Shown here piece after piece: positions 3,890-42,744 of a stretch of DNA of 64,000 bases (its first letter is position 1; each line of letters begins with the position of its first letter). The stretch comes from Tubulanus polymorphus (Eukaryota > Animalia > Nemertea). Location of the stretch: positions 7,512,862 through 7,576,861 of the forward strand of contig NC_134034.1 of assembly GCF_964204645.1 (NCBI RefSeq), read 5' to 3'. A model generated the notes under the pieces. It did not search any database and was not told the DNA's origin. It worked only from the letters and a program-made list of their open reading frames with translations. A program made the position numbers and the translations under genes.

Positions 3890-3975
3890 GTAAATATGAT
3901 ATCAAAAAATATCAAGAAAAAATAATAAAAAATAAACATGATAAAAAATAAATAATTAATTTTTTTGTTTAATAA

Positions 3976-5224: not shown

Positions 5225-5257
5225 AATTTTTAACTTTAATAAAAATATATATAATAA

Positions 5258-6439: not shown

Positions 6440-6459
6440 TTTAAAATATGAATATAATA

Positions 6460-7061: not shown

Positions 7062-7114
7062 TATCAGGTATTAGGGTATCTAATAGGGTATCTAATACAT
7101 AGATATATAAATAG

Positions 7115-8831: not shown

Positions 8832-8837
8832 TCTATT

Positions 8838-20317: not shown

Positions 20318-20586
20318 AGTAATAGGGAATATCTTGTTTCATACCAAAGGTCGAAAGGTCGAGCTCATAAAAAATGAAAAATATGAAAATAATAACAATT
20401 TCTATTTGAATTAGTAGCGAAACTCATATAAAATGAAAAATAATTCTCGCACACTCGAATTTATTTTTCATTTTATATGAGTTTCACTCCTAATTCAAAT
20501 AGAAATTATTATTATTTTCATATTTTTCATTTTTTACTCACTAGCCCTTTCAACCTTTGATATGAAACAAGATATTCCCTATTACT
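20318..20586. repeat. 269-bp imperfect terminal palindrome, left end of copy B
   Basis: Starts AGTAATAGGGAATATCTTGTTTCATA and ends TATGAAACAAGATATTCCCTATTACT; ~130-bp arms around a TCG-CACACT-CGA centre. Confidence 0.95.
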
Positions 20587-20676
20587 CTTAAAATATTCAT
20601 ATATATGAATAAAATATAAATGAATAACTTCTAAAATCAATTTTAATAAAAATTTTAGTATTAAAATGGAAGCAAA

Positions 20677-22913
20677 CAAGAGCCCCAAGGGGCACAATGG
20701 CCAGCCTGTCAGATTTGCTTTTTATAAATGATGTAATCTGTGGGTTATATTTATCAATATACACTCCCTGCTCAATATCATTTACATAGTAAAATCGTGT
20801 GTTAACACAGACAGCAGGAACGAATGTAATATAGAAATACTAAGTTATTGTATTGTTCAACGCCCCCTGGTGGCCATAAAAAAAACCAATGAGCTTGAAA
20901 CTCACCTCGATATCATAGAACATGTCATGAGCTACAACTTTCCAATTGATTATAGTAGCAAAATATGCTTAAGTATCAATTATGATGTGGAAAAACTTTT
21001 TTTCCACCTACGAATTAGTACTGATGACCCCAAGATGGCTGCCAAGTGCGTCATAATTGCCTGGTCAAAAATACCCTCTCGGATTTAAAAGATCCCTTTC
21101 CAAAGAATACCCATTACAAATTTCAATGAAACATGGCGCACCATTAGAAAGCTACAGTACTCAGAATTCAGGCCAAAATTGACATTTTTGGGAACAAAAA
21201 AGGTCACAGTACGGCCATCTCGAGTCCGATCGACTCAATTTTTCTCATGCCGATGGGCCCTCGGGGGATACAAATATATACGAATGATCAAGGTTATTGA
21301 TAAAAGTGTCTTCAAAATTTCCCTCGAAAACTTCAAAAATTTGTAAAAAGTGCTGATTTTGGCGAACAACAATGGCTGCCAGTCGGCCATCTTGAATCTG
21401 ACAGGGCCAGTTTTTGGCCTGAAGATGTGTCTAGGGTAGATACACGTATAAAACAAATATCAAGACATTACCTTGAAGCGTCTTCAAAACTTTGGAACTC
21501 TCACGAACTATCTAGATGGTTATCTCTCGACCTCAATAGCTTCAAGACCCATCTCAAAACAACTTTGTTCCATGCAGCATACCATTAACTCTCGGAAAGC
21601 GAATTGTATTTAACATTTTTTGGCAGAATAAAATTTGATTGAATTTGCAATTCGGGCACATGGCTAATTAGCATATCAAGGTCATACACCCGATTTGGTA
21701 AAACCTTTTTTTCGCGAACCTTGCGCAATTGTCAAGGATGAATTTTCTGTAGAGCAAATAAAAATTCCTCCCAAACACCAAATCAACTAAAGACTTCATA
21801 GAAATCGATCTTGAAATACAATTTTAAATCTTAAAATAAAACCCGGAAGTAAAACAGTAGACGATACCGCGGATTCACGTGAACACCTGATTTCTGTAAA
21901 CGAAATGTTGGTTGTGACAAAATTGTTCAGACGGTTTTAGGTGGTAATAAGTACGGAAACGTAACGACCATGGTCGACTTATTCGATGAACTCAGGCCTA
22001 TGTGATATCCAAATTTTGACTTTTTTATTCTCCAGACCTCCCTGATATAGAAATAAAAAATTTTGGTGGTACGAAAGTGCAATCACAGCGCCGACGGGGA
22101 CAGAGCCGTGTCAGAGATCGGCGGAGTGAAAATTGAGGTGGACGAACACGAAGAAGTAGGCTATTGCGCTACTTGAATCACGAAAACTCCTGGCGCGGCC
22201 CCGACGCTTTTCGTTGATTAAGTAATACAAATATCATGCAATGGGTTTTCACAATCTACCGCTGGTATTTACCGGATTTCAATATCACTCCAAAATTCAA
22301 AGAAACCTCGAAATATCGAACCGGAACACTTCCGGTAGATATCCGCGGCTGCCCAACCGGGAAACTTATTTGTTTCAATAGATATTGATAGGATCCATCA
22401 TTTTCACCCGTCAAGGGATTCGAACCCACTAAGCTAAAGCCATGCCAGAATCGGGTCGGGCCAATCACAGCGCTTGTAACAAACCACATTAGGCTTCTGT
22501 GGAATTTCCCAGTAAATGGGCCAATCAGCGAACACGTAGCGAACGCGGAAGTATTGTCGCGTGTTGATACATGACGTCATGCGCAAAAGCGCCAGTAATG
22601 AAATCGCGATAATTCACGTGAACAGCTGCTGATATTTTCGGATAAACCAATCACAGGGAAGACACAACTTCCTGATTGGCTGATAAAAATTGAAATTTTC
22701 CCGATTTAACTTTCGTGAAAAATGCAGAAAACATTTTTATGAGACCCTATTTCAAAATTCTGCTCGCTACGATTCCGAGAATGGATTACGCTTAAATACG
22801 TGATTTGTTCGAATATGCCCTCACTTGGCAAGCAAAAGAGCCTTTTGTGTGGAAACCATGTCATTTAAATTCGCTCCATTTGTATAGTAATAGGCTCAGC
22901 CTACGGCTGGCCT
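20677..22913 (-). mobile_element. Helentron-associated (HINE/DINE-1-like) non-autonomous element inserted in the left TIR
   Basis: Interrupts ATG GAA GCA AA|T AAG TAC at an AA/TT site. Hairpin AGGCTCAGCCTACGGCTGGCCT at one end; subTIR GGCCAGCC and stem-loop GCCCCAAGGGGC at the other. Internal repeats shared with 59865-60600. Confidence 0.7.
21493..21635 (+). mobile_element. 3' end fragment of a CR1/L2-type LINE
   Basis: Reads WNS...LNSFKTHLKTTLFHAAYH* followed by AATAAA. Confidence 0.5.
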
Positions 22914-23367
22914 AATAAGTACTACTGTCCAACATGTAATATCAATATAGATAAATCCCAAAAAAGCAAGACACAATAAAACTAAAACACATTTAGAGAA
23001 TAAATTGAAACTAGAATATTTACAGTTATATTCAGAACAGTTAACAAAGGCAAAGAAATTTATTGATCAATGGAACAATGATCCAAATAATGAACAATAC
23101 GTTGAGGAATTTGATATCAAGGATATGATTTAGATATTTCATGTCGGTTGTTTCTATTTACAAAATTATATATAATTATGATTAGCGCATGCGCATTAAG
23201 CAAAACCGCGCACGAATGCGCGGTTTTGCCCAGTGGTATTATTTAGATATAAAGGAATCGAAACAATTTATCAAAAGCAGCGAGGAATGAAAAAGGATGA
23301 CGTTGGTTGAAGAAATGGAAGAGGATTCTAAAATATTAACCAATTTAGTAAAAAATACGTATAATAA

Positions 23368-24025
23368 ATGGAATCAGAACAACCACAAATTATCAATATT
23401 ACAAATAACACTGGTGTTATAAATATATATTACAAGAAGTGTTCTAAATGTGAATTAGATAAATTAGCTTTAACAGAATTTAGTAAGCGTAAGATTAGCA
23501 AAGATGGTTTTCAATATTGCTGTAAAACTATATACCAAACAATACCGAGAAGATAATAGAGAAGCTTACAATGATTATATGACAGAATATATGAGAGTAA
23601 GATATCAAACAGATCTTAATTTTAGATTGAAACAATGTTTAAGATCTAGATTAACACAATTATTCAACAAAGAAACGCATTCAGAAACACTATCTAATCT
23701 ATTGGGTTGTACAGATGAATTCTTAAAATCATGGATTATATATCAATTCGATGATAAAATGAATATAGATAATTATGGTGAATACTTTCATATTGATCAC
23801 GTGTTGCCGATTTCTAAATTTGACATGAATGATGAATACAATAAAAAACTTATTTGGAATTGGAAGAATCTAAGACCTTTAGAAAAGAAGGAAAACATAA
23901 TTAAATCCAATAAACTAGATTTACAGTTATATTTAGATCAACTGGATAAAGCAAAGACATTTGTTGAATTATGGAATAGTATTTCACAGAATCAACCGCA
24001 TTCTGAGGTTTTGATCAGTGGTTAG
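23368..24025 (+). pseudogene. HNH-type endonuclease (copy B; one frameshift near 23525)
   Basis: Same motifs as 10979-11620; HIDHVLP...NLRPL..EN..K. Confidence 0.78.
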
Positions 24026-24375
24026 AAAGCTGGCAATTCTATTTGAGCTTTGTATGTATATAATACATAGCTTTTGCTTACTACTAAAACATATATATTG
24101 CCAAATATATCATGTTTTCAATTCTAAAGAATTAATTAACTTCATCATAAAGAACATCTGTGCAGAAGTAATTAGTTTGGTCGAACATGCGCCACGTCGG
24201 CAGTTAGAAATCAACTTTCACATACATAGAACGTATTGGATATTCTCTCTCAAAACACAGTTTACAGTTCTAAATCTAAATGTAAGTACCTTTTTTTGTA
24301 GTTATTATGAATTAGGGAAACCTTTAAACATATTTAAGTACAGTAATTCATTTTCACGATATCTTTTAGATTAAA

Positions 24376-24840
24376 ATGGAATACAGAGCAACCAGAAATT
24401 CCAAGCCAACCAACGGATGAGGAACCAGAAACGACGGATAGTGAAACTCAGGAATCAATAGAAATGGAGGATAGAACTCTCGTAATTGACGAACAAACTT
24501 CACAAAATTACAAGAACATTTGGATTATCATCAAGAAATGGTGAAAATTCTGAGTGATGTAATACATAATAAACAATTACCGCGCGAACTACAATTACCA
24601 AAATTACCAGCAACGCGACTTAAATTGCTGTTGGGACTCAAAGAATCGAAAACTAAGAAAATGAGTGGAGATATCAGTGCCGGTTTTGAAAGAAAACTGA
24701 GAAGAGTAGGTAGATTAATAAAATATGAAAAATTCAAAATATTAGGATTAGCATTTAGTGAAGTAGTTAGATATTTACCAGAAATTGAAGAAATGATTGG
24801 AAACAATCCAGTAATTAAAGAATTCTGGACAAAATTATAA
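24376..24840 (+). pseudogene. Hypothetical protein specific to copy B (acidic N-terminus, frameshifted)
   Basis: TAAAATG start, EQPEIPSQPTDEEPETTDSE, then ORF 24520-24840. Confidence 0.45.
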
Positions 24841-24933
24841 ATTATAACACTCTGTCTTTGTAATATAGATATCAAAAAATGTAATCTCGATTGTATATAT
24901 CTGTTTAAATATTGTATTGTTTACTGTTAACAG

Positions 24934-25270
24934 TGTATTGCGCAATAACCGGTCCGATTGAACCGTTTTTCTATTGTTCTCCATTGTTCTATTATTGATC
25001 GTTGTTAATGGCGGCGGTTGTTCTGTATTGATTGTTTACGTGTGTAACTGTGTATTGCGCAATAACCGGTCCGATTGGACTGCTTTTCTATTGTTCTCCA
25101 TTGTTCTACTATTGATCGTTGTTGACTGAAACAGCTGCTCAATATTGATTGGTTACAGTTCTATGTTTGAATGTTGTAGTTTACAGAATAAAAATATAAC
25201 TTTGTATTGCGCAATAACCGGTCCGATTGGACCGCATTTCTATTGTTCTCCATTGTTCTATTATCGATCG
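24934..25270. repeat. Three ~70-bp repeats containing palindromes TATTGCGCAATA and CGGTCCGATTGGACCG, separated by unequal spacers
   Basis: Copies at ~24934, 25051 and 25203. Confidence 0.85.
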
Positions 25271-25679
25271 CTAAAATTTACATAATAAATATATGTGTTT
25301 ATGAAATAATATTTCCACCAGTCGTTTCTTTGAATTTATTTTCAGCTTGAGGATTTATTATCGAGAATCCGAAATGACTTATCTGAACAGTTATAGTTAC
25401 CGCTCCTATAGATAGACAATAGTAGTGAGATATTAAATCCTAATTTAAATAAAAAGTATTTAAAAAACAATAACTTCAACTAGCTAGTGAATTCTATTAT
25501 ATTTTTAATATTTTCTTTTGGTAATTCTAATTGACACTAAATTGAATAGGTTTTGAATAGATTTGAATAGAAATTCTTTAACTTTAACTAACCTAGTCAA
25601 TTTAGTATTTACCCAAAGAGATACTAGTATCATTTTATAATACTTATAATATTTTTATTATTAAATTTCTCTAATATAA

Positions 25680-26288
25680 ATGTCAAAGAAATCGAGTAAG
25701 AATAGTATTGATATTGAAAAAACATTAGATGATTTGGGCATAAGTGATAATAAAGATACAGTTGTAACTAATTGTGCTCAAGTTAATTGTAATATAGATT
25801 ATGAATACTATTTATATTGTAAGCATCATCTAGAACTATTGATTGCCGGTGGAAAAACTAAGGATTTCTTGGGGAAAATAATAACTTTTCAAGAATTAGA
25901 TGCTATGAAACCCGATAAAGTAATAAAATATTTTAAGATTTATGAAGAAGCAAGATTAGCCTGAATAAATGATTCTATTTCAGATGGTATTGTCAAATGT
26001 TATTCTAAATTATGTAACCAGTTAATACCAATTGATGATGAAAATAAATTATATAGTGATTTGAAAAATGACTACTTAGTTATGACTGAATTACAAAAAT
26101 GGGTTGGTTATGCTTCATTTCAATTAGGATCGGTTATGACATTAATTTCTACTGGTGTCATAACATTTTCGAACATCAAGCCTATGGAATATAAATCAGG
26201 TAAGAATGAAACAGATGACGCTGTACTACAACCGAACGTCGAAACAGAAAATGAATCAGAACAAAAATTAACTAAAATAAATGAGTGA
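25680..26288 (+). pseudogene. Homolog of 9199-9801 with a premature TGA at 25962
   Basis: Copy A has Arg at this position. Confidence 0.8.
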
Positions 26289-26646
26289 TGGCGTTAAGAA
26301 AAAGGCTAGATCCGAGAAACAAATTAAATGGGCAAGAGAATTAGGTAAAAGATCTGCAGAATTAAAAAAAGCTAAGAAAAAGAAATTAACTGATATAAAT
26401 GAATCACAGACTTTATCTGATATTGATTCAAATAATAATCCATCTGATTCTTCTAATGCTGGAAGTAATTATAAATTATATATTTCAATTGGATTAGTAA
26501 CAGTTATTATATTATCCGGTGTAATATATAAATTAAAATTCAAATCTGATGATAATGATTCCGATGATAATAAACCTATCATACCAGAAAATAAGTCAAA
26601 TCATAAAGTCATTGAAACTAAATCTAAATTATTATTAATGGATTAA
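26281..26646 (+). CDS. Small basic single-pass membrane protein
   Basis: Homolog of 8838-9206. Confidence 0.75.
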   Translation: MSDGVKKKARSEKQIKWARELGKRSAELKKAKKKKLTDINESQTLSDIDSNNNPSDSSNAGSNYKLYISIGLVTVIILSGVIYKLKFKSDDNDSDDNKPIIPENKSNHKVIETKSKLLLMD

Positions 26647-26652
26647 AATAAG

Positions 26653-27795
26653 ATGAAAAAAGAACAATATTTAAGAGATTTATATTATAACCCAGAGAGT
26701 GAAGTATCATATTCTATTGTTTCAGAATTATGGGATAGAATTAAATCTGATAATGAAAATGGTGCCGTATGGCACCCACATGGTGATATAAAATATAGTG
26801 AACTAAGATTATGGTTACAAAATCAACCAACATATCAAATTCATAAGAAAATGGATAAAACTTATTTAACATGAAAAGTTATGGTTTCATATATCGATCA
26901 ACAATGGCAAGCAGATTTAATTGACATGAAGAACTTAGAAGAATACAACAAAGGATATTTCTGGATATTAAATGTTATAGACATATTCAGTAGATACGCA
27001 TGGTCAATTCCAATAAAAAATAAAACTGGTATAGAAGTGACAAATGCTTTTAAATCTATATTTAAAGAAGCAATTCCAGATAAGATACAATTTGATGAAG
27101 GTAAGGAATTCTATAACAAACATTTCAAAAAACTATTATCTGATAACGATGTAGAATATTTTTCAACACACTCAGATAAAAAAGCATCTATTATAGAAAG
27201 ATTTAATAAAACATTGAAAACTAGAATGTGGAAATATTTTACTGCTAATGAAACATATAAATATATCGATGAGTCTATAAATATATTCGATGATTTGGTG
27301 AAAGGTTATAATAATTCTAAACATAGTTCTATAAATATGAAACCTATACAAGCTAGAAAAGAAGATAATTCAGAAATAGTTTGGAATAATTTATATGGAG
27401 CATTTGTTACACATGATTTCGGTGAACCTAAATTTAAAATTGGACAACACGTAAGAATATCTAAATATAGAAAAACATTTTATAAAGGTTATACTCCAAA
27501 TTTTACTGAAGAAATATTCAAGATTAAAAAGATAATATTAACTAAACCATTTGTTTATAAATTAGAAGATTTAAAAGATGAAGAAATATTAGGTTATTTC
27601 TATGAACAAGAATTATCACTTGTACCAAATCCAGATGAAATAGAATACAAAATAGAAAAAGTATTGAAAAGAAAAACTCTAAAAGGAAAAAAGTATTCTT
27701 TGGTGAAATATAAATGATATGATGATAAATTTAATGAATGGATTTTATCTAGTAAAATTAAAAGAATAAATGAATACAGATTTATTTATATTCGA
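26653..27795 (+). CDS. int: rve integrase with chromodomain, with in-frame TGA at 26872-26874 and 27715-27717
   Basis: DDE motifs as in copy A; LRDLYYNP N-terminus typical of Polinton integrases; chromodomain continues YDDKFNEWI after the second TGA. Confidence 0.92.
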
Positions 27796-28381
27796 ACCGC
27801 ATAATATGTTAGTTACTGGTGTAACCAATTGTGGTAAAACACATTTCATATTAGACTTGTTAGAAACTATTTATAAGAATCATTTTGATAATATAATATT
27901 ATTCTGTCCTACTTATGAAATGAATAAAACATATAATAGAGATATAGTTAAGATGAAAAAGTTTATTATATTAGATCCTAAAACAGTAAAAGAAAATTTA
28001 GATAATTGTATAAAAATAGCAATTGATACTTATAAAGGATCAAATACATTATTCATTATAGATGATTGTGCTAATCTACATGATTCAAAAGTGAGAGAAA
28101 GTGAGTTATGTTATCTAGCTTTCTCTGGAAGACATTTTGGGATAACAACATGGGTTTTAAATCAAAAATATAATTCAATTATTAAAGACTTTAGAGAGAA
28201 TATAAGATTTCTAGTTTTATTCTACAATAAAGTTAGAAAATCTATGCAACAATCATTGGAAGAAAATCAAATTATACCAACTGAATTACATGATGAATAT
28301 ATGAATAAATTAAAGAATAATAAAGGTTCAAAATTATTACTGAGATTACAATTTCCATATGAATATAAATTTATAAAATAA
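27770..28381 (+). CDS. A32/FtsK-HerA DNA packaging ATPase
   Basis: Walker A GVTNCGKT, Walker B LFIIDD, SGRH arginine-finger motif, NQK, REN. Confidence 0.92.
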   Translation: MNTDLFIFEPHNMLVTGVTNCGKTHFILDLLETIYKNHFDNIILFCPTYEMNKTYNRDIVKMKKFIILDPKTVKENLDNCIKIAIDTYKGSNTLFIIDDCANLHDSKVRESELCYLAFSGRHFGITTWVLNQKYNSIIKDFRENIRFLVLFYNKVRKSMQQSLEENQIIPTELHDEYMNKLKNNKGSKLLLRLQFPYEYKFIK

Positions 28382-28497
28382 CTATTTATATACCTATGTA
28401 TTAGATAACCTAATACCTGATACCCTATTAGATACCTTAAATACTTAAAACCCCCTTTTTATTTACTATTATTTTATACAATTTTCAACCTTTATTA

Positions 28498-29382
28498 TTA
28501 TTTGATTGTTAGATAATTAATTTCTGAATCACTTTCATCATCACTCTCCAATTCATTATCAGGCCCTAACAATTTATTCAAATGCTCTACCGTATCTTCA
28601 TAAATAATTGGTTTATTGATATACTTATTAGGCATCTCAACTATATCTTTATTTTCTGATATAAGTTTCATAGAATCTTTATTATCAATGCGCTTTCCTG
28701 TATTTTCATTATCATCTTTATTAGTGTTTGTTCCTAATATTTCATTTACAGTGTTTGATCCTAATATTTCATTAGCATCGGTTAAATCTAATTCATTTTT
28801 ATTAGGTGTTGCTAATAAAAAGTCTTCATATAATTCTTTACCATTTACTTTTTTATTTGAAACAAATTTTGTAACATATCTAAATGGGTGTTCTATAAAT
28901 TCTCTTAAACCAACGCGTTCTATAACATTAGTAATATGTGAATTTGTATTCATATGTTTATTCCAATTTGATGGAGCGTTTGAAAATTCACCTTTACAAT
29001 AATCACAATAATTTCTATTTTTACTAACATTTAATATTATTGCATTATTATATGTAGAAGGTATTACATTATTTGATGTAGAGGGTATTACATTATTAGA
29101 TGTAGTAGGTATTACATTATTAGATGTAGAAGGTATTACATTATTAGATGTATTAGGTATTACATTATTAGATGTAGAAGGTATTACATTATTATCAATT
29201 ACATTACATAAATTATCAACAACTTCACTTTTATTATTATCGATTTCTATTAGTTTAGTTTTATAAATTTTGAAAATAGGATCAAATATCAAAGCTATAT
29301 TACAAGGTATTACATAATATAAACCATCATTATTTTCATGTGTATCGATGTATGGAATATGTTTATATACTTTACCTTCCAT
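28498..29382 (-). CDS. Variable-slot protein with NNVIPSTS repeats and one zinc-finger-like motif
   Basis: 294 aa; 24-bp tandem repeat at ~29045-29200; YCDYCKG..WNKHMNTNSH. Confidence 0.7.
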   Translation of the reverse strand: MEGKVYKHIPYIDTHENNDGLYYVIPCNIALIFDPIFKIYKTKLIEIDNNKSEVVDNLCNVIDNNVIPSTSNNVIPNTSNNVIPSTSNNVIPTTSNNVIPSTSNNVIPSTYNNAIILNVSKNRNYCDYCKGEFSNAPSNWNKHMNTNSHITNVIERVGLREFIEHPFRYVTKFVSNKKVNGKELYEDFLLATPNKNELDLTDANEILGSNTVNEILGTNTNKDDNENTGKRIDNKDSMKLISENKDIVEMPNKYINKPIIYEDTVEHLNKLLGPDNELESDDESDSEINYLTIK

Positions 29383-29414
29383 TTATTATATAAATTTTCA
29401 TTAAAGTTAAAATT

Positions 29415-30667
29415 TTAATACATAACACTATTTAATTGAGAATTTACAATATTTAATTGCGCGTCAGATATAATATAAATGTGCATTTTAAAATTTTTGA
29501 TTCCTTTTTTTTTTGTCATGAATAATTGTATTCCATCTTTAGTGTTTTGTAGTTTTTTTCCAGAACCATGTAATGAATTATCCTCTGTTGTTCTAAAATC
29601 TAACCATAATGCATATTTATTACCGGTATAATAATCAATTTGATTAATATTACAATTTTCAGATGATTTCACTTTTTCATTCGTAAAATGTTTTCTAATT
29701 TCTGGCCATTGATCTATCATTCTCATTCCTTGACAAAATATTTTATTTGCTATTCCTTCGATAGTTATTTCTACTTATGTTATTTCAGGATTATAATAAT
29801 TATCAACATTTATTGCGCCATAAGTATATGTTGCAATGGTAAAAAATATTAATATACCTTTAATAGATCTTCTTGGGAAGTTAATATTCTCATTAATAAT
29901 TTCATCATTTGCATTAATAGTTACAGTTTTAAATTTATCAATATAATCATATAATAATGAAAATCCTTGATTGTATTTAGTTTGAATTATACTTGAAATA
30001 TTTTCATCAGTTACTGTATCATATTCTAAACATATATAGGTATATGGCCTATATTCGATAATTTATAACTCATATCTTTATTAACGCTAGATATTACAAT
30101 TTCATTTACAGGAGCAAATGTTATTTCGAATATAACCTCTTCTTGAATTGCGTATTTATATAAAGGTGCATTGTCAAAGTCTAATGGAATTTTATATTTG
30201 CTTCCATATATACTTTTTATCAATTTATCTACAGCATTAGTTAATATTGCGCTATTAGCTTCTGATCTTAATTTATTTTGGTTTTCTGATTGGATTCCTT
30301 GAAATATCATATTATTTCTATTTTCTTTAGTTAACCATAAATCTTTATAATGCATAAATAAATTATAATCATCTAATGAGAAAACTGTTTCTGGACCAAT
30401 CTTTATTGTTAACTTTTTAATCAAATATCTCCCAACATTATCGACAACATAATTATTATTATTACCGATTACTTTTATATCGGCTGATAAATAAATACTA
30501 TTTGGAACATAAAATGTATTTTGTGTTAATCGACGGATTCTAACATATAAAGTTTCATCGGGATTAATATTAGAAGGGTTATGAGTAATTATATGATGTG
30601 ATCTTTCTGCTTTAATAGCATTAGATATTCTATGATTCTTAGAAGGATTGATATAACTCCCACTCAT
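29415..30667 (-). pseudogene. Probable major capsid protein (copy B; insertion near 30040, stop near 29777)
   Basis: Near-identical to 3976-5224. Confidence 0.7.
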
Positions 30668-30687
30668 TTATTTAACAAAAAAATTAA

Positions 30688-32145
30688 TTATTTATTTTTT
30701 ATCATGTTTACTAATCCAAAAATAATTGCACTTACAACTGTAATTAAAAATAAAATAATATATTCAGCAGCAAAGTTAAGAATATTCCCAGCAGGTTTCA
30801 ATATAAAACCAACAATTGATGCAATAACTCCTGGCAATGCTGCAGCAGATTTTTTAGATAGTTCCCATAAATATTTTGCTAATTTCTTTAAACCATCCTT
30901 AACTTTATCTTGTATAGAATTATTATCATTCGGGGGTTTATCTGGTTTGTTAGGTGTAGGAGTAGATTTCAAAGCATTTGATATTGCTAAACCAATTGTT
31001 GTAAATAACATAGTTACTGCTGTTAGAATTGAAAGAATTGTTATTCCTTCAAACTTAAATAATAATTTTATTCTATCTTTCAATGATATTCTAGAATCTG
31101 GTTTGATTAGATATCTTTTAAAAACATCTTTTAATCTATCAATATTATAATCATATGATTTTAATAATAATTTAATTTCTTCTTTTTGTAATTCTATGTT
31201 ATATTCTAAATCATCTTTTTCTTTTTCTAAACGTAATTCTTTTTGCCTATATTCTATTTCATCAATAACTTTATTATCTCTATCTTATTTTGATTGTTCT
31301 ATTTCTTTATTTTTATCAGTTAATTCTTTTTCTAAAAATCTAATTTTAAAATCTCTTATACTTTTATCATGCATAATTTTACCAGATGCATGTCTTATAC
31401 TAATAATTTCTCTAATTGCTTTATCAGAAAATATATCTAAATCTTCTAATTGTTGATCTGTTGCATCAAGTAATCCCTTCGGTAAAAGTTTTTCAGTTTG
31501 AACTTCTCTTGAATTAGGTCTACTAGTTTTGGAAGTTATATTCTGTTCAGAACTTGTTTCTGGTTCTAAATTATTATCGATTGTTTCAAATAATTCATTA
31601 ATTCTTTGTTTAAATACTCTTTCATTTTTAATAATTTCTTCTTGTGTTACATCTTCTATTTCATTACTATTTCTTATTATTTTAATTCTATATAGTAATG
31701 AGTCAGACTTAAGCAAAGTTGATTCTGCTAATATTTTGTTTTGTTTTTCATAAGAGATATCAATATAATAATCATCTTTCAAACGATAACAATATTCACC
31801 ATCTAAAAACTTTAATTCTTTTACTAAAAGTCTGGCACCTCTATCATTGATATTATATCCAGATTCTTCAAATACATGTTTGAAATTATAAATATATTCA
31901 TAATATTCTAAATTTTCCTTTAATAAACCTGGATTTTCATTTTCAATAGGTATTCTCGATCTAGTTCTTCTATCAAATTCATCTGTTGATGGGGCTTTAG
32001 AACCACTATCTGCTAAATTGGAATTATATGCTGATTCATTACCATCATCAATATTAGTTTCTGCATCATTATAATCATCATCAATATATCCTTCATTATT
32101 AATTCCCATTTCTCCCATTTCATAATCTTCTCCGCCTTCTGCCAT
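30688..32145 (-). pseudogene. Coiled-coil/membrane protein (frameshift near 31285)
   Basis: Homolog of 2489-3889. Confidence 0.75.
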
Positions 32146-32161
32146 TTACATAATAAAAAAA

Positions 32162-33098
32162 TTAAAATTTAAAATATAATATTCCTCCGATTACAATTCA
32201 TATACAAGTTATAGCTAATTTAGTATTTTCATGGGATTTATTATCATCATTTAGTTTAATTATATCATGTTGAATATTATCAGTTTTTATATTTTCTGAT
32301 GTATTGTAATCTTTTATTTTAGAATCATTATTTAATTTAATATTATTAGTTTTAGTTTCTGTTGATTGAATGTGTTTTTTATTTTTTTCACCTTCCATTA
32401 ATTTTGGAGCAGTAATAATCTTTTTATTTATATCATTAAATCCAAATGAATTATTTATTGTTGCAGTTTTAATTAGATTAGTATAACCAATTATGTTTCC
32501 CATCTTTAATACTAAATCATTAGAAATAATTAATAGATTAGGGCCTATACAATAATTTAGTCTTACATGTGATTAATCTAAATAATTTTGATATCTTACA
32601 ATGTTTTCTGGAATAGATCTATTTTTATCATTATGAATGGAATCTTCAAATAAAACTTTAAATTGTTTTTGTGTATCGAATGAAGTATTTAAATTTCCAA
32701 TTATCGGTGATCTTGTTTCAACTTATGTATGTATGAAATCTGAATAACCTTTGAATTAGTTTATATTTAGAATTATTCAAATGATCATTCCAACTAATTC
32801 CACATCCTGTTGTTGCGCGATAAACAGCAAAATTTAATTGGTTCTGCCAATACTTCATATTAGATTTTAATAACCATTGTTTTTCATCTTTCAATTTTTT
32901 AAAATCAATTAAATATACATGAAATATATTTTCCATCTTTGCATTAAAATTATTAGTTTCAGTAACATAAATTTCTAAATTAGTTAATGAATCTAAAACT
33001 TCATTTCTATACGTAATATCTTTATTAAAATCTATTGCTGGAATATTATATTTAATTGATTTATTATATTGGAAAGCTTTTGGAAAACTATCTACCAT
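32162..33098 (-). pseudogene. Homolog of 15-1398 with an internal deletion
   Basis: FRFHTY is joined almost directly to VETRSP; ~450 bp missing relative to copy A. Confidence 0.75.
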
Positions 33099-33549
33099 TT
33101 ATATAATTAAAAAATTGATAATTTATTAATTCTTTTAATAATTTATCTTGTTCTTCAACTGTTATATGGCCATTTAAACTTATTATATAATCTAGTGTAT
33201 TCTTTAATTTATTAATTTCTTTTATATTAGTTTTAATTTTTTCTTTATTACTTTTTATATCTAATTTTGAACTTATACCAGTTAAAACACTTGATGATAA
33301 TCCTAATACACCAATTGATATAGCTAAAGGTGTTAATGGTGAAAATATTGCTAGAAATGTTATTACAGAACTAATTGTAACCGAACCACTTATAATCAAA
33401 TAATATATAATTTTACTTTTTAAATATTTTTTCTTTTTTATCTTTAAGTCACTTTCAAATTCTAATATTTGTTTTTCTAAATATGTTTTTAATTTAGTTT
33501 TATTTATATCATGAGGAATAATATCAATATTTTCAACTTTATCTTCCAT
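33088..33549 (-). CDS. Two-TM membrane protein
   Basis: IIYYLIISGSVTISSVITFLAIF and LAISIGVLGLSSSVLTGI; TAAATG start. Confidence 0.7.
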   Translation of the reverse strand: MEDKVENIDIIPHDINKTKLKTYLEKQILEFESDLKIKKKKYLKSKIIYYLIISGSVTISSVITFLAIFSPLTPLAISIGVLGLSSSVLTGISSKLDIKSNKEKIKTNIKEINKLKNTLDYIISLNGHITVEEQDKLLKELINYQFFNYINGR

Positions 33550-33569
33550 TTATTTAGCAAAAAAAATTA

Positions 33570-33987
33570 CTAATTAGTAAATTTATATGCTACAAATATA
33601 ACAACAACAGTTCCACCTAAAATCCAAATTATTTCATATTTCTGTTGTTCTTTACTTGGGGTATAATAATCTGATAATTTAGGTTTGTATAGATTTTTCT
33701 TTATTGGTTACCGCGTTATATAAACTCATTGCATCATCAACTGATTGAAAATCTCTATGTGAAATCTTCTGATCATATAATTCTTTATTGATGTAATCCA
33801 TATAGTTTTGTCTTTTTTCTCTATATTCTTCTGCTGCTTTATTGTATTTCTCTAATGCTAAGTTATGTCTTCTTTGTTCTCCTAATGAACTATTTTTATC
33901 AATATGCTTAAATAAATAACCACCACCAGTAAATGCTAAAGCGTTAACAATTGCCGATCCTATAATAGTTATAATTGCAGAAGCCAT
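33570..33987 (-). pseudogene. Small membrane protein (frameshift near 33685)
   Basis: Hydrophobic N-terminus MASAIITIIGSAIVNALAFTGGGYLF. The shifted frame continues PKLSDYYTPSKEQQKYEIIWILGGTVVVVFVAYKF. Confidence 0.65.
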
Positions 33988-34011
33988 TTATTTAGCAAAA
34001 AAATTATGCAT

Positions 34012-34233
34012 TTATATGGGAGGAATATATTTTTGTTTTTCCAAATAATCAATAGTTAAATTAGATAAAGTAACTGCTAATATTAATTTTAGAATATCAT
34101 TTATATCAAATCTATCAACATTAACACTTCCCATTTTGAATACTTTTTTTAATACCATTGAATAACCAACAGTTCCAACTGATAGTAATGCGCCATTATA
34201 TAATCCAGTTATTATCCACTTATTATCACTCAT
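34012..34233 (-). CDS. Small hydrophobic protein
   Basis: 73 aa, two hydrophobic helices, TAAATG start. Confidence 0.65.
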   Translation of the reverse strand: MSDNKWIITGLYNGALLSVGTVGYSMVLKKVFKMGSVNVDRFDINDILKLILAVTLSNLTIDYLEKQKYIPPI

Positions 34234-34590
34234 TTATTTATCAAAAAAATTACTATCATCAAAATATTTAGTTAACTTATTTATGATTAATTCAACATTT
34301 ATTTTATTACTAGTTTCATTTGTATATATTTCAATTATTATTTTTTTAATATCATCGATGATAAAATCTTCATCTAATTCATAAAATCTTAAAGATTCTC
34401 TAATTAAATTAGTAATCTTTTCTACATTTAAAGTTTCTTTATCTATTGTTGTTTCATACTCAAATGTTGTTTCATTAGAAAATGCAATATTTTTAATATG
34501 TGTAATTACATCATTAATGTTAAATTCCATTTCTTTCTCATGTTTAAAATCAAACCCAAAACATATACTCGGTCCAACAGTTAGATTCAT
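34234..34590 (-). CDS. Hypothetical protein
   Basis: 118 aa; TAAATG start; tightly packed in the gene array. Confidence 0.6.
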   Translation of the reverse strand: MNLTVGPSICFGFDFKHEKEMEFNINDVITHIKNIAFSNETTFEYETTIDKETLNVEKITNLIRESLRFYELDEDFIIDDIKKIIIEIYTNETSNKINVELIINKLTKYFDDSNFFDK

Positions 34591-34606
34591 TTATATAATG
34601 AAAAAA

Positions 34607-35362
34607 TTACTCTCTACATCTTATAACTAATTCATAAATTACAGGAAAGTTATTCAAATCAATTAAATAACCATTAAGATTTCTTATTTCTAATTTAAAA
34701 TTATTGAATTTAGGAATGCATGGTTTGAAATCACATTCAGTTAAATTATAATTTATTTGAGTTCCAAATTGTTTAACATTTTTTAGCGGTAAAATATTTA
34801 ATATACTAGAACTACAAATTGATTCTTTAGTTGCTTCGAAAGTTTTTGTAGGCTCGATTAAATTGCAATAAATATAAAAGTGTGTAAAAGGTATTATATT
34901 TGAGCCGCCTTCTGCGTTTCCAGTAACTGTTAGCGGTTTAATTCCTAACATTTTAGCCAGTGGTTTGTTTACCATAAATTTATGTTGTTCATTAGATATC
35001 TTTATTCTAATTTTATTAGTACTATCAATTTTATTAAATTTAATTTCAAATACAGAAGTGCCTCCGATTTTCAACCGAGCTTTTCTATTAATTTCCTGCG
35101 CTAATGATTCTAAATTATATAATCCTGGTTTTAAAAATATATGAAACCATTTATCTTTATTTCTCATATAAATCATAAACCCTCTATGTTCAAAAGTTTT
35201 ATCTGATATATTATAAAAAGAATTACATAAACTTATATTTACTAATTTTAAATCAACACAATTCTTGAATTCTCTATCTAATTGTACTAGTAAATTATGA
35301 GATTTATAATTTGTAAGCCTTCTAGAATCTACAAATATTCTGTATTCTTTTAATTCTACCGT
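34607..35362 (-). CDS. Probable minor capsid (penton) protein; start codon reads ACG
   Basis: Open from TAAACG at 35362 (copy C has ATG GTT GAA TTA AAA here). PGLYNLESL, FYIYCNLI, LEIRNLNGYLIDLN fit the Polinton penton pattern. Confidence 0.7.
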   Translation of the reverse strand, partial: TVELKEYRIFVDSRRLTNYKSHNLLVQLDREFKNCVDLKLVNISLCNSFYNISDKTFEHRGFMIYMRNKDKWFHIFLKPGLYNLESLAQEINRKARLKIGGTSVFEIKFNKIDSTNKIRIKISNEQHKFMVNKPLAKMLGIKPLTVTGNAEGGSNIIPFTHFYIYCNLIEPTKTFEATKESICSSSILNILPLKNVKQFGTQINYNLTECDFKPCIPKFNNFKLEIRNLNGYLIDLNNFPVIYELVIRCRE

Positions 35363-35379
35363 TTATTTTACATATTTTC

Positions 35380-35721
35380 TTATTCGAAATCTATTTCATG
35401 GTGACCTTTTTCATTCTTACCTTTGTATACGAAATAGAAATCTCCAGAACATAATTCTTCTAGATCTTCACTTGATAATCTATGAAATCTATCTGGTAAA
35501 TATGTTCTAAATTTATATGTATTTCCTTTTAATCCTTCATATTCTAAGTGTATAACTAATTTATCTCCATAGTTATTAGTAACTGTATCAATATTTGTAA
35601 TTAGATATTTCTTATGGATTGTTAATTCTGTTAACTTTTTGAATCTATAATCTACAGATTTTACATTTGAAGTATCTTTTATTCTATTTAAGAATTCACT
35701 GTGTGCTTGTTTACTCTCCAT
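35380..35721 (-). CDS. Small protein, possibly OB-fold/ssDNA-binding
   Basis: FKKLTEL..Y.IT..T.YG..LPDRF pattern, immediately downstream of PolB. Function is inference. Confidence 0.45.
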   Translation of the reverse strand: MESKQAHSEFLNRIKDTSNVKSVDYRFKKLTELTIHKKYLITNIDTVTNNYGDKLVIHLEYEGLKGNTYKFRTYLPDRFHRLSSEDLEELCSGDFYFVYKGKNEKGHHEIDFE

Positions 35722-35750
35722 TTATAATACATAATTTTATTAAAATTTGA

Positions 35751-38700
35751 TTAACACGTTAGAATTCTTTTCATTATCTCGTTCTCTTTTGTTTCTTCTC
35801 TTTTAAATTTTAAGTATTCATCTAAATTACAACCATAAGCAACTGTATGAATTCCATCATCTAAAATATATCTTTTATCATCAAATGGGTTTAGACTTAT
35901 CTTTTCAATTTCTTCAATAAACATTTCATGATCTTCAGATCTTAAACATCTCATCTTATGTTTTCTAACTTCTTCATTGAATATACAATTGATGTAATCT
36001 TTGAAATGAATATTCTTTTCTACTACACTTTTGGTTATTCCTTTTAACTTTTTAGCTTCATGTTCTTTAGTTTTATATGAATACATTTTAGATCTAATAC
36101 CAATGAATTCAATCATTTCTTCACCGCCTAATTCATCTTTGAATTTACCAGGACCTTTTTTATTATCATTGCTAAACAATTCATGATTTTTAGGATAGTT
36201 ACTGAAATCAAAATGATGTTTTAATGTTTTTAAATCATCAGTTATGTTATCAGTTTTTATCTTTTATATGTAAGAATCGGTATCAAAATATAAGATTTCT
36301 ATATGTTTTTCTCCAAAAAGTGGTTGTAATATATTATAATAGAATTCATACATTAGTAATTTTGATAATTCTAAAACTGAAGCGCCAACATAGATTGGTT
36401 TATTAAATTTCATAGATGTTCTTCTCATTTTAACTGCAGCTAAATTTTCATCAAATATTCTGTTACCAATGAACTTAGGATATGTTTGTAAATGTCTAAT
36501 TCTTTTACCATTACTAACTAACTCAATATCATTTCTATTTCTAATATTTTCACAAGTCTTACCATAGAATGCATTATTCATTAACTTGAAGAAATCTTTC
36601 TCGAAATCAGTTTTAGCTTCAGTTCTCTGTTTGGTGTTAAAATCTATATATTTTTCTAACCACTTAGATTGACTGAATGAAATATATCTATGTACTTTTT
36701 TTAGGATCATTCCTTGTTTTAGATAAAACTTTAACATTCTATAATGCACTACATAATTATATTTATCTTCTTGAGTTACCATTAACTTTTCTGTATGAAT
36801 ATGATTTTCAGGTTTAATTCTTTTTTGATAATTTGATAATTCTTCATGAGTTACAGTTTTATGTTCGGGACAGTATGCTAGATTTCTAGATTTAAATTTT
36901 TTATCTTCAGGATATTCTAAATCTACAACAAAGAAGTAACCAGTATCTGAATCATCTGCAATATCTAGAATTCTTTTCTTCCAATCAAATTTATCATTAT
37001 TTTCACGTTGTAAAACTTCAGTTAATTCAAATACTCCATAAGGTTGTGGTTCCATCATTGCCCAACCATACAAATTATTTGCATCTATATATAATAACTT
37101 ATATCCAGGGTTATCATTTACATTGAAATATCTATCCCCTAATACACCTGAAACTCCTCCTCTTATAGATTTTTCAAATAATAATAATTGATCGATATTT
37201 GTTAACAAATCCATTTTTATATCTGTAAATTTTAATCCACAATCCCATGTTAATCCTGGACTTGAATAACAATGACAAGGATCAATGATAAAATATTTTA
37301 GGTTTACATCTCTAAACCATTCGAATATATCCGATAATAATAATACATCCGATTTTAAATATATATCTACTTATTGCCCATGATTTTTCATTCCAAAATG
37401 ATTCCAAATATTCAATGTTCTATTATAGACTTCATCTTTAACATATTCATTTTTTAATTCATCATAGAATTGTTCTTTCAATAATTCAGTTATGTTAAAA
37501 TCATCATGATTTTTATAGAAAGAATATGGAATTGCTCCTTTATATCTCATTAATTTAAAATCATCATTATTTGGGTAGTGTTGTTTTAATATTTTTAATT
37601 CATCATCAACTAATGATTTTGATAAGTTATCTAATGAACTATTTAAAAATCTATATGAATCTATAAATCTTAGGCAACCAAATTGGAATGATATATAATT
37701 CTCAGATGTTTTAGCTAACATTCTAAATTTATAAGTTGGTATTTTATCTTTTGATCTATTTGAATTTAATCTTTCTATTTCATTATTAATTTCTTCTATT
37801 TTATGGCATAACTGTTTGATGAATAAATGTGCATCATATCCTGATAGATTATGAAATATAACTGGTACAAAATTAATTTTCTTAGCTTGTAAGTTACAAT
37901 TCTCATGTGCAGCGCCTCTAAACTTTCCATTCAAATGATCATGGTCTCTTACTTTTTTATCTTTATCATTAAATATCTTTTCACAATAATAACATTTATC
38001 TGCAAACGCAAATTCTTCTTTATCTTCTTCTGTCATTATAATTTCTATATTTGTATTCAATAATTTACTAAATCTTATTTCATATTCAATTAATAAGTCA
38101 CAAAAATGATTGATAACATTTTCATTTCTATAATGATAATATTCACTTTCAATTAGTTCTGGATAATCAGATTTTATATATAACCCGAAAGCTGCAGCTG
38201 ATTGATGAATCTTTTTAATAGTATTTGTTTTTGGTGGTTCATCTGAAAAATCATTTTCATTAGAATTTAATTTCTTTCTTTTATAATATATTTTTTTTCT
38301 ATCTTGATCAGTTAATTCTTTATTTAATGATTCAAAATCTCCATATATTACAAATGGTACTTTATTTTTGTAATCATATTTTTTGAATTCTAATATTTTA
38401 TCCTTTTCATTTGGTAAAATTAATTTACAATAATCATGATTTTCACATAATTGTTTATGATTTAATAATGCACTTTCATTACTGAATCTATGTAAACATT
38501 TTCTACAAAGATATATTTTATTATCAAAATCATTTTCTGATTTAAAAAATAAATCAATTCTTTTAATCCACATGTAATGATTCTCATAATATAATATATC
38601 TATAACATCGTTTGAATCATAATCTTTTGATAGATATAAAGGTTCTAATGTATAATGTTTAATATTATTACCTTTTGTTTTTGGTAATTTGATTAAATCG

Positions 38701-39791
38701 AATACATTTATCTTTATATTATTATCTCTTTCTATTTTTGGGATATTTTTAATTCTAACAGGATACTTATCTATCTTATAATTATTTTCAAATGGTTTAT
38801 AATGAGTTGATCTAAAACTATGTGTAATATCTTCTGTTGGATGTAAGCAACTTATTATAGCCCATAGAAAACATTTATCATCTTCATTTTGTACATTTAT
38901 TACAGCATTAGTTTTAAATGGTAGTTTAATATAACTCGATGCTTCAATATCTGGTTCTTTATAATATGATACATTATTTTCATCAATTGGTTTTGATTTA
39001 GTTAACTTATTATATTTTGTGTTATAAACATGTAAAGTTATAAATATTATTTCATCAAATAATAAACCAGATCCTTCAAAATATTTCTCTTCTATTTTAG
39101 TTTTTACTTCATTATAACATTTATCTAATTTATCATCTATATGTTGTTTTGAAATAATATGTTGTGAATGAGAATTTATATTATATATTGGTTTATCTTC
39201 AGATTTTATAAACTTTTCTTTAACTGATATACTAATTTTAGGGTATTCAACATCTGTAATTATTTTTATTATTTCTTTCATATTTTCTAAATGTTTTTTA
39301 TTTTCTTCTAATGTTTTTCCTTTATGAAATTTAAACTCGATAGCTGCTGGGCCAATATCACTTTTAAATGCTTCGGTTATCTCTATATCTGTTTTATTAT
39401 CTAATGAATTAATATAATTTCTTACATCTTCCATGTATGGTCTTTTATTGTTTAATTTATTTTTTATGCTTTTAATTGTCTTTTGTTTCTTATCATTATC
39501 ATTATCAAAATATTCTTCACCTAAAATATCATTATTGATATTTCTAATATGACTTTTAGATTTTAAATGTTCATTATAATATCTTTTATCACTGAATGAT
39601 TGATTACATGTATCACATTTGTATGTTTCTTTTTCATTCTTTAATTCTTCTAATTTAGTTTCTAATATATCATCTTTATATTCTAGTTTCAATTTATTCT
39701 CTAAATGTGTTTTAGTTTTATTGTGTCTTGCTTTTTGGGATTTATCTATATTGATATTACATGTTGGGCAGTAGTACTTATTTGCTTCCAT
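35751..39791 (-). pseudogene. polB: Protein-primed family B DNA polymerase (pPolB) with N-terminal zinc fingers and endonuclease VII-like insert; disrupted near 37371 and 36264
   Basis: ExoI YGDFES, ExoII FHNLSGYD, DHDHLNGKFRGAAHENCN, motif A YIDANNLYGWAM, motif B KLMNNAFYGKT, motif C YFDTDS. Confidence 0.95.
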
Positions 39792-40139
39792 TTTAATACT
39801 AAAATTTTTATTAAAATTGATTTTAGAAGTTATTCATTTATATTTTATTCATATATATGAATATTTTAAGAGTAATAGGGAATATCTTGTTTCATATCAA
39901 AGGTCGAAAGGGCTAGTGAGTAAAAAATGAAAAATATGAAAATAATAATAATTTCTATTTGAATTAGGAGTGAAACTCATATAAAATGAAAAATAAATTC
40001 GAGTGTGCGAGAATTATTTTTCATTTTATATGAGTTTCGCTACTAATTCAAATAGAAATTGTTATTATTTTCATATTTTTCATTTTTTATGAGCTCGACC
40101 TTTCGACCTTTGGTATGAAACAAGATATTCCCTATTACT
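39678..40139. repeat. Right TIR of copy B (contains the first 38 codons of polB and the palindrome 39871-40139)
   Basis: Reverse complement of 20318-20676 plus 22916-23019 with only a few differences. Confidence 0.95.
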
Positions 40140-40223: not shown

Positions 40224-40954
40224 GCTGACGTCTCGATCTCCTTCAGTCAGCAACAGAGTGCAATGGTTTTATAGGGGTACAGACAATATTGTCGCATTCC
40301 AAACTAAGTTACTGATAGGCTGGAGTGTCTGAATTTCATGAGATTTGCCGAAACCCGCATTGTAACATTGAGGTGTTTTTCATGTGCTTACATTGCCCCA
40401 TGGAAAACCAAGTAAGCGATTGGTGTGGTTTACTGAAATGCATGGGGATTACTGCAATCCGTATTGTTAGATAGAGACGTGTAAGTTTCAAAATACGTTT
40501 CCGAAAAATTGAATCTATTATTATGATAATCACTATTATTCATTTGCACATATAAATGGCCAACTTCAGACCCAGGTAACATACATGTGTTACTTGGACA
40601 TGAAACATGTCGGAAGTGGAGACGTTTAAAGATGAGTAATAGGGGTAATGGGCTTTCATACGTCAGGTCGAAAGGTCGAGCTCATAAAAAATGAAAAATA
40701 TGAAAATAATAACAATTTCTATTTGAATTAGTAGCGAAACTCATAAAAAATGAAGAATAATTCTCGCACACTCGAATTTATTTTTCATTTTCTACTCGCT
40801 AGAAAAAGTGTGAGTAAAGTGTGAGTGAAATAACTCATATTTTAGAAAAGTAACGAGTAATTAACGAGTTGATTAAAATTAGATTTTTAAACATAAAAGT
40901 GTGAGTAAAGAGTGAGTAATAATTCATATTTTGACATTGAATATTTATATTTGA

Positions 40955-41603
40955 ATGAGTTTTAATGAAAATTCAATTATAAAAATGAAGACAGAAGAAG
41001 AACCCAACTTTAAAATCGAAATAAAAGAAACCAATAAATTATTTTCACAGTTTAACATTAAAAATTATATCTCAGCAACAAATTTAGTGTCCGCAAGGTA
41101 TTATAAAATTGATAAGATTTCTATGATTAATCAAATATCATCAAATGAAACATATTTAATTACTGAACTAGTAGATACTTTTGATAATGGCGTTAAAAAT
41201 CCTAAATTGTTCAATACAGTTTTAAATTTTAAAGGAACTTTAGATGAAAACATAATTAATATTCTTAAAATTCCTTTCAATGAAAGAAATGATGATTTAA
41301 TACTTTCTAAAGATTACAATGATTTGATTAACTTAAGAATTGAAAAAAGACAATTATATTATTTCAATTTTGATAATAAACAAATTATCTATAATGAAAA
41401 TTCATCAAATATTGGCATTCAATGTGAATTAGATAATGAAAAATCATATAAAGATATTGCAATTCGATGTGATTTAGAAAATGAATTCAAAAGATTTAAT
41501 CCTTATGAAAAAATTCATTGTTATTGCAAAAGGTAACTATTCAAAATCACATAAATCAAAGCATTATGAAACAATTAAACATAAAAACTGGCGTAAAGAG
41601 TAA
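40955..41603 (+). pseudogene. TIR-encoded protein with C-terminal zinc-finger-like motif (second copy ~44052-44697 on minus)
   Basis: ORF 40955-41536 has a late frameshift. The other TIR copy reads HCHCGGKYSKSHKSKHYETIKH. Confidence 0.6.
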
Positions 41604-41677
41604 CAATTCTACATTAGAAATAAATTATATAGTCAAATAATTATTGAATTGAGTTAAATGATTTAAATATCTAATAG

Positions 41678-41925
41678 ACTGTTAAAATGATAAATTGTTT
41701 GACAGTTGAAATGATTAATTGTTTGACATTTAAAATGATAAATTGTTTGACAGTTGAAATGATAAATTGTTTGACAGTTAAAATGATAAATTGTTTGACA
41801 GTTGAAATGATAAATTGTTTGACAGTTGAAATGATAAATTGTTTGACAGTTGAAATGATAAATTGTTTGACAATTGAAATGATAAATTGTTTGACAGTTG
41901 AAATGATAAATTGTTTGACAATTAT
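41678..41925. repeat. 24-bp tandem repeat (ATGATAAATTGTTTGACAGTTGAA), about 10 copies; ~4 inverted copies at 43882-43976
   Basis: Directly visible. Confidence 0.95.
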
Positions 41926-42064
41926 AATGTTAAATTGTTTGGTTGTAAATTTAATTGTTATTTGATTTAATCATTTAAAAGTTTAATATTTTAAAAATGA
42001 TTATAAAATATTTAATTAAAAACTAGCAAATATTTATTAATTTTCTAATTTCTTTCTTAAATAA

Positions 42065-42283
42065 ATGGATGGTTTCATCCCAACTGGGAAAAGTGATTTG
42101 AAGCATTATCTTGTAGCAGGAGTTTTAATATTGGCGGCATTATATTTTTACTATGAGAATATTTCAAAAGATTTGATGAATGAAAATGATAAATTGAGTA
42201 AAAAATTAAAGAAGTTAAATGGAAACAATCACAGAAATAAAAAGAATAAAAAAGTTAATTTAGAAAATGATTTAGAGAATTAA
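42065..42283 (+). CDS. Small single-pass membrane protein of the satellite element
   Basis: TAAATG start; YLVAGVLILAALYFYY TM followed by a basic coil. Confidence 0.6.
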   Translation: MDGFIPTGKSDLKHYLVAGVLILAALYFYYENISKDLMNENDKLSKKLKKLNGNNHRNKKNKKVNLENDLEN

Positions 42284-42321
42284 AACAGCATCTTTTAATT
42301 TCATATATTTTGACTATAAAA

Positions 42322-42624: not shown

Positions 42625-42744
42625 GCAATAGACTGTTAAATTGGCTGAAATATATAAAAATAGATTATATTATAACTATTTCTATACTTAGATTAATAAT
42701 TTATGTTTTTAATTTCTATAAAAACTAATACACTTGCACAGTAC

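Follow-up and report, generated by a model that had tools for sequence, protein, structure and literature searches.

Occlusion bodies of entomopoxviruses contain Polinton-like viruses (PLVs), two of which are described as diverging lineages within the mavpol2 clade of capsids (PMC11296320), and this provides a precedent for a Polinton-related element that lives alongside a poxvirus. Endogenous mavirus-like elements (EMALEs) with promoters like those of Cafeteria roenbergensis virus (CroV) are expressed in helper-infected cells (bioRxiv 10.1101/2025.10.09.676808). That Mavericks may act as virophages is an idea already published in general form; the transcription of animal Polintons, and whether they need a helper, is an open question that was raised as a possibility in the same paper (PMC8097293). 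Here, we describe a start-site element, TAAATG preceded by a T at a fixed distance, in a Polinton lineage represented in a 64,000-bp stretch of the nemertean Tubulanus polymorphus (assembly GCF_964204645.1, contig NC_134034.1, positions 7,512,862 to 7,576,861, forward strand; called the window below), and we weigh whether it could be the late promoter of a poxvirus-type helper.

A conserved element at Polinton gene starts

The window carries two Polinton copies, A and B (Table 1). An earlier note on this DNA had counted TAAATG at 13 of 17 gene starts in copy B, and our recount agrees: TAA directly precedes ATG at all 13 listed starts, as it does at open reading frame (ORF) 42065 of a neighboring non-autonomous (satellite) element. 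Fifteen starts were scored, which excludes polB (start beyond the region edge) and penton (start broken in copy B, as the note had it); including both gives the 13/17. TAA-ATG was found at 13/15 scored starts versus 37/683 other ATGs (5.4%) between positions 22914 and 39800 (Fisher p=2.5e-14). Under a stricter null, the first ATG after a stop, TAA preceded 37/478 (p=2.3e-12), and a composition null from upstream sequence gave P(TAA)=0.087 (p=1.5e-12). Motif enrichment, the check named beforehand for a composition-matched background, was obtained in three nulls, the composition null among them, each at p <=2.3e-12. In the host flanks, TAA stood before 6/288 and 16/562 ATGs.

The T-runs that had been described upstream of many starts are present as T6-T8 within −20 to −8 at 7/13 copy B starts; the fixed feature is a T at −12, found at 13/13 TAAATG starts, with a T at −13 in 10/13. 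Of the three genes that had been listed as exceptions, only integrase is a true miss, without the element, and polB and the broken variable ORF are near misses that start at TAAAATG. The TAA doubles as the upstream stop at 34233 only, as previously stated. Occurrence of the motif beyond copy B was also borne out, at 8/9 starts examined in copy A and at satellite ORF 42065; satellite ORF 42322 starts with the variant TAAAAATG. Copy A is 87-96% identical to copy B, so its starts are not independent.

Retrieval with an alignment of 47 capsid homologues yielded 36 loci from metagenomes and 1 from a genome. Starts in these relatives were taken as the first ATG with N-terminal homology and were not picked by motif. 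Near-duplicates were removed (copy A, L002, L012, L023, L034, and the satellite), as were 8 internal gene fragments, one antisense-shadow group, and one further internal piece. A capsid tree of 24 rows contained a 16-row clade that includes the window (support, 100/98); the start was TAAATG in 15/16 rows of this clade and 0/8 of the remaining rows. Counted over all homology-supported starts, the element was present at 48/54 in the capsid clade (subgroups: 27/30, 7/8, 11/11, 1/3, and 2/2) versus 0/53 in sister Polintons, with L016 and L025 assigned to the clade by capsid identity (55-57%) and not by the tree. The motif is not explained by GC content, since outgroup loci at 26-39% GC scored 0/11 and clade loci at 36-44% GC scored 7/8. 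The best DNA matches to the window are 64-79% identical. The 48 starts share ancestry and represent one origin kept over deep divergence, not 48 independent events. The element is real, conserved, and lineage defining.

Three side observations concern these relatives. In AT-rich outgroup Polintons (L017, L028, and L032), starts often read like TA(T/G)AAA-ATG, with A at −3, possibly a looser relative of the motif. One clade member (L005, positions 10340 to 10981) carries a deoxynucleoside kinase gene (Pfam dNK, 1.7e-31) that is preceded by the complete TAAATG element with its T-run. Its three homologues, 60-67% identical, suggest that the family travels with such elements, and the gene pointed to no donor. 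A Polinton capsid/ATPase fragment (L037) lies in a contig of an archaeal metagenome-assembled genome (genome_contigs) and was probably misbinned.

Geometry of the putative promoter and candidate readings

In vaccinia late promoters, TAAAT(G) overlaps the start codon and is preceded by a T at a distance of ten bases (PMC11980589), a consensus written T-N9-TAAATG (PMC11423596, Table 1); this geometry was drawn from these later papers, not the primary ones. In the Polinton clade, TAAAT lies over the start codon at 48/54 starts. Compared with the 119 TAAATG sites of these loci that are not gene starts, the 48 clade starts more often had T at −12 (45/48 versus 38/119) and T at −13 (40/48 versus 37/119), and the full T-N9-TAAATG pattern gave the same 40/48 versus 37/119; the vaccinia late group I core was matched at 23/48 versus 7/119. 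Position +4 was G in 33/48 clade starts versus 24/53 outside. The earlier note had likened the motif to poxvirus late promoters and had suggested a pox- or asfar-like helper. The poxvirus likeness holds up, being clade-wide, independent of GC content, and spaced in line with the published consensus; the asfar-like half is not supported, because the late initiator of African swine fever virus (ASFV) is TATA (PMC7163114), which the invariant TAAAT of the clade element does not match.

The block upstream of the element is T-rich or A-rich by gene family (permutation p=0.027, n=58). Vaccinia intermediate promoters are spaced TAAAAA-N14-TAAA (PMC11423596, Table 1), and this spacing was seen at 0/48 clade starts under a strict definition and 1/48 under a loose one; a two-class system of intermediate and late promoters was dropped, as the A-run subtype misfits the intermediate spacing. 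The element lies inside the upstream coding region at 7/48 starts (6 of them with T at −12), and in head-to-head gene pairs it is present facing both ways, which ties it to the downstream ATG. The same placements rule out the T-run as a terminator of the upstream gene.

By analogy with vaccinia, we favor at about even odds (probability, roughly 0.5) the reading in which the two-part element, a fixed T 12 to 13 bases upstream plus TAAAT over the start codon, is the late promoter of a poxvirus-type helper polymerase; dependence on a giant-virus helper of some kind seems quite probable. Vaccinia polymerase reads TAAA directly, as described for the intermediate complex (PMC12917281), and slippage at TAAA yields a 5′ poly(A) leader (PMC6211774). 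Carried over to the Polinton, a poxvirus-type RNA polymerase would read TAAA and begin transcription inside AAA, and through slippage the mRNA would gain a 5′ poly(A) leader, with A in place of the anti-Kozak T at −3. Integrated copies would stay largely silent, and capsid, ATPase, and replication genes would be expressed in the helper-infected cell, as in mavirus/EMALE provirophages. The broken copies in the window probably record the lifestyle of the lineage rather than present activity. More tentatively, this integrating clade in animals may as a whole consist of endogenous virophages that depend on the late transcription machinery of a poxvirus-type virus yet to be discovered, with the satellite sharing the promoter.

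The element resembles virophages of the mavirus/EMALE type in that no RNA polymerase of its own was detected: when sets of 32, 33, and 32 proteins of the window and of related loci were scanned with Pfam, nothing above noise matched an RNA polymerase, TBP, or TFIIB, and polB is the only ORF large enough for an RNA polymerase. Across the 50.6 kb of 72 clade coding regions, sense AATAAA occurs 185 times (3.65 per kb), versus 196.7 expected from synonymous shuffles; across the 10.2 kb of 16 such regions in the AT-rich outgroup, it is reduced to 16, versus 25.8 expected (z −2.9). The unpurged AATAAA of the clade fits release from nuclear polyadenylation.

A number of observations weigh against a poxvirus-type late promoter. 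It is a short motif, rich in AT, whose T peak at −12 is one base nearer than the published −13. Integrase often has no element and accounts for 3 of the 6 clade misses. No helper virus was found in viral contigs by motif scan or homology; a strict motif scan of viral_contigs returned 19 matches, mostly chance phage sites and none with repeated fixed spacing, and neither viral_contigs nor phage records contained capsid or ATPase relatives. No transcript or 5′ end was found either; three low-share runs yielded 1-2 short pieces each as contigs, which weighs in neither direction. The element yielded no pox-like gene, and ORFs lacking an assignment (the 118-residue ORF, the variable ORF, OG2, and OG7) may leave room for a divergent self-encoded factor. 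Three giant-virus-type contigs (L051, L058, and L059; two of them contigs of giant-virus metagenome-assembled genomes among the 19 motif matches, and the third a relative retrieved by PCNA homology) have TAA-ATG at 4/10, 6/12, and 5/20 ORFs, so the helper may belong to another family; T at −12 accompanies 1/4, 3/6, and 2/5 of these, so the T is not fixed. The AATAAA contrast rests on 10 kb of outgroup and is weak, because outgroup genes, too, rarely have AATAAA after their stops (1/12 and 2/53) and are not a clean RNA polymerase II (Pol II) control. Sense TTTTTNT is depleted in the clade (13 versus 43.5 expected, 0.30; mirror TNTTTTT, 0.59), which late poxvirus genes should not need, and runs of T6+ and A6+ in clade coding regions are at 0.20 and 0.65 of expectation. 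T-run depletion may be a sign of either T-run-sensitive termination or avoidance of cryptic promoters. Across copy B and L001 to L025, sense T runs of at least 6 fall to as little as 0.07 in the GC-richer members, more than A runs.

Among other explanations, the late promoter of a non-pox nucleocytovirus helper (iridovirus-like, for example, or of another marine lineage) with a TAAAT initiator is unlikely. It draws on the TAA-ATG at 25-50% of ORFs in the giant-virus-type contigs, on the poor mapping of late promoters in iridoviruses and their relatives (PMC5294985), on the iridovirus partner proposed for vertebrate Mavericks (PMC8097293), and on a literature search for poxviruses of marine invertebrates that listed only 3 records; yet the T is not fixed in those contigs, it is for poxviruses that a T-N9-TAAATG geometry has been published, the ASFV late initiator is TATA, and our literature search found no relevant paper on iridoviruses and TAAATG. 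We rate a little lower a private nuclear promoter, at which a host factor, or a divergent one encoded by this or a sister Polinton, leads host Pol II to leaderless starts. TATA-like boxes at Pol II distance precede only 5/54 clade starts, the element overlaps the ATG instead of lying ~30 bases upstream, and unpurged sense AATAAA at the density given above should shorten Pol II transcripts; Pfam gave no TBP or TFIIB match, and a 113-residue candidate factor folds, in its predicted model, as a single-strand DNA-binding protein (SSB). What speaks for a nuclear promoter is that the element integrates in nuclear DNA and that several of its ORFs have no assignment.

It is improbable that TAAATG serves translation or gene packing, whether by stop-start coupling, as an in-frame guard stop, as an overlapped AATAAA, or as a trans-splice acceptor. 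In favor of such a role stand the close packing of the genes and the many starts with AATAAATG, but TAA is the upstream stop in 2/48 clade starts, the element also occurs in head-to-head pairs and at first genes, and the fixed T at −12 would have no role; for a splice acceptor in particular, AG within 12 bases of the ATG is rarer in the clade (7/54) than outside it (28/53). Finally, copy B is ~77% AT, which might have produced the motif by chance, as might a motif-guided choice of starts. This explanation is refuted by the three nulls, by the choice of relatives' starts through homology, and by the contrast between AT-rich outgroup and GC-richer clade loci, and we give it practically no weight beside the poxvirus-type promoter.

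Structure and gene content of the locus

Table 1. Polinton copies, satellite element, and start sites in copy B (window coordinates)
Feature	Position	Strand	Remarks
Polinton copy A	1..12760		Partial; inverted relative to B
Non-autonomous element	40635..45017		Polinton terminal bases; own 6-bp duplication AAGATG
Polinton copy B	20318..40139		Terminal repeat to terminal repeat; AGT...ACT ends; several genes broken
HNH/zinc-finger-like gene start	23348..23370	+	T(−12)...TAAATG element, A-run subtype
Conserved ORF, group OG2	25660..25682	+	Element
121-aa ORF	26261..26283	+	Element, A-run subtype; within upstream coding region
Integrase start	26633..26655	+	No element; rve gene 26653-27717 in two pieces
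A32-like packaging ATPase (27770-28381)	27750..27772	+	Element
Variable zinc-finger ORF	29380..29402	-	Element, A-run subtype
Major capsid protein gene	30665..30687	-	Element, T7 run; gene broken in copy B
Coiled-coil ORF, group OG3	32143..32165	-	Element, T7 run
Conserved ORF, group OG7	33096..33118	-	Element, T6 run; within 3′ end of upstream ORF
153-aa predicted membrane ORF	33547..33569	-	Element, T8 run; weak SLATT match
102-aa ORF, group OG5	33985..34007	-	Element, T7 run
Element inside upstream ORF	34231..34253	-	T7 run; its TAA is the upstream ORF's stop
118-aa ORF	34588..34610	-	Element, T6 run
Penton-like gene	35356..35385	-	Broken start
113-aa ORF, predicted OB-fold SSB	35719..35741	-	Element
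polB-like gene start	39789..39811	-	TAAAATG variant; T at −12 and −13; inside terminal repeat

Copy B is a Polinton/Maverick by its terminal inverted repeats with AG...CT ends, a 6-bp target-site duplication (AGTGTC) flanking it on both sides, an integrase (Pfam rve, 1.5e-9), and a packaging ATPase (Pfam Pox_A32, 8.4e-12). Many genes are broken in both window copies, and the left terminal repeat of copy B is interrupted by an insert at ~20681-22913. From public DNA sequencing under the same species label, 96,287 reads aligned to positions 22500 to 42400, mostly 90-99% alike; this depth and likeness indicate a Polinton family with many diverged copies.

The capsid-like gene, which in a Polinton would encode a double jelly-roll major capsid protein, has a weak Pfam match (Capsid_N, E=0.0029), 60 unnamed homologues, and no sequence match in PDB. 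We take the gene with the broken start to be penton from a sequence motif, and the polB label, which would denote a protein-primed family B polymerase, is likewise our assumption from motifs; the polB-like pieces group with a 1,211-residue ORF of L018, and their Pfam matches are only to endonuclease VII and zinc fingers. No maturation protease family was matched by Pfam among the scanned ORFs, although a divergent one could escape. The 113-residue ORF is predicted to be an OB-fold SSB (model pLDDT, 80), with best structure matches to PRD1 P12 (E=0.01) and a phage SSB (1.6e-4); the OG7 model (pLDDT, 37.8) was too poor for a structure search. The broken variable gene (24372-24840), which is missing from copy A, has an N-terminal part that is acidic and a C-terminal part that is basic and helical, and no family was found for it. 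Two candidate RNA polymerase subunits gained no support: the variable ORF (24538) had no Pfam match and no PDB match below E=0.1, and satellite ORF 40955 had a sub-threshold Rpb1_5 match (E=0.014) and no PDB match below E=0.1.

Each Polinton terminal repeat contains a 270-bp imperfect palindrome (~89%; 39871-40139, 20318-20586, and 12490-12762), and the terminal repeat extends into the polB promoter and the first polB codons. A ~115-bp GC-richer repeat is present in three tandem copies in a non-coding part of copy B (24910-25308). A third Polinton fragment (14829-17281) is older and decayed; its penton-like and polB-like pieces share 71-79% identity with copy B. The non-autonomous element has long inverted repeats that include a 193-residue ORF, and part of it recurs at 47847-48982; its small ORFs had no match among the Polinton ORFs compared, and an insertion within it is presumably a Penelope-like fragment. 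A 3,831-bp inverted repeat (42361-46191 and 46673-50503; 100% identity, 481-bp gap) points to an error in the assembly or else to a recent inverted duplication, and a small palindrome (50509-50742) lies beside it. The window flanks contain C2H2 zinc-finger ORFs, a DDE_1 transposase (Pfam), and what we take to be a Penelope-like GIY-YIG fragment, a content that fits an animal genome.

Comparison with described systems

No report of a TAAATG motif in Polintons was found in our literature search, which most subscription papers lay outside. The main text of PMC11296320 never uses the words promoter, motif, TAAAT, or transcription, promoter is absent from the main text of PMC8502044 as well, and the accessible text of PMC8097293 has no promoter analysis. 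Poxvirus-associated PLVs are already published, and what is new here is a Polinton lineage with a putative promoter that resembles the poxvirus late promoter. If the poxvirus reading is true, provirophage biology would reach from protists to animals, the motif would mark hosts of hidden pox-type viruses, and provirophage defence would be possible in those hosts. Should the helper reading fail, the motif would still mark out a lineage of Polintons as its conserved regulatory element, and its clade-specific likeness to a pox late promoter makes the helper question cheaply testable.

Mavericks/Polintons and 'adintoviruses' (PMC8502044, PMC8097293) share with the window Polinton the terminal inverted repeats, 6-bp duplication, rve integrase, A32-like ATPase, capsid gene, and polB-like gene; they differ in that no protease was detected in the window Polinton, and sister Polintons do not have the motif. 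Yeast pGKL1/2 (PMC6211774) are protein-primed linear elements, as the window Polinton probably is, and have a comparable TAAAN initiator, which gives 5′ poly(A) leaders; they encode an RNA polymerase and a capping enzyme themselves, and what lies upstream of the initiator is more like an early promoter. Mavirus/EMALE provirophages (bioRxiv 10.1101/2025.10.09.676808, 10.64898/2026.07.28.741278) are likewise small, integrated, capsid-coding elements with a clade-specific late motif of giant-virus type; they are protist virophages with a known helper, CroV, and shown reactivation, unlike the Polinton clade, for which no helper is known and whose motif is of pox type. Entomopoxvirus-associated PLVs (PMC11296320) resemble it in tying Polinton-related capsids to poxviruses in animals, but these were found physically with their helper in insects, some without a detectable integrase.

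Compared with the poxvirus late promoters themselves (vaccinia; PMC11980589, PMC11423596, PMC5294985), the Polinton motif, known here from DNA sequence alone, has its T peak at −12 and not −13, serves nearly all genes, replication included, rather than one temporal class, and lies in an integrating element with no detected polymerase. It is like them in its TAAAT over the start codon, in a +4 that is mostly G, and in a T-rich block about one helical turn upstream, in a pattern found at 40/48 clade starts.

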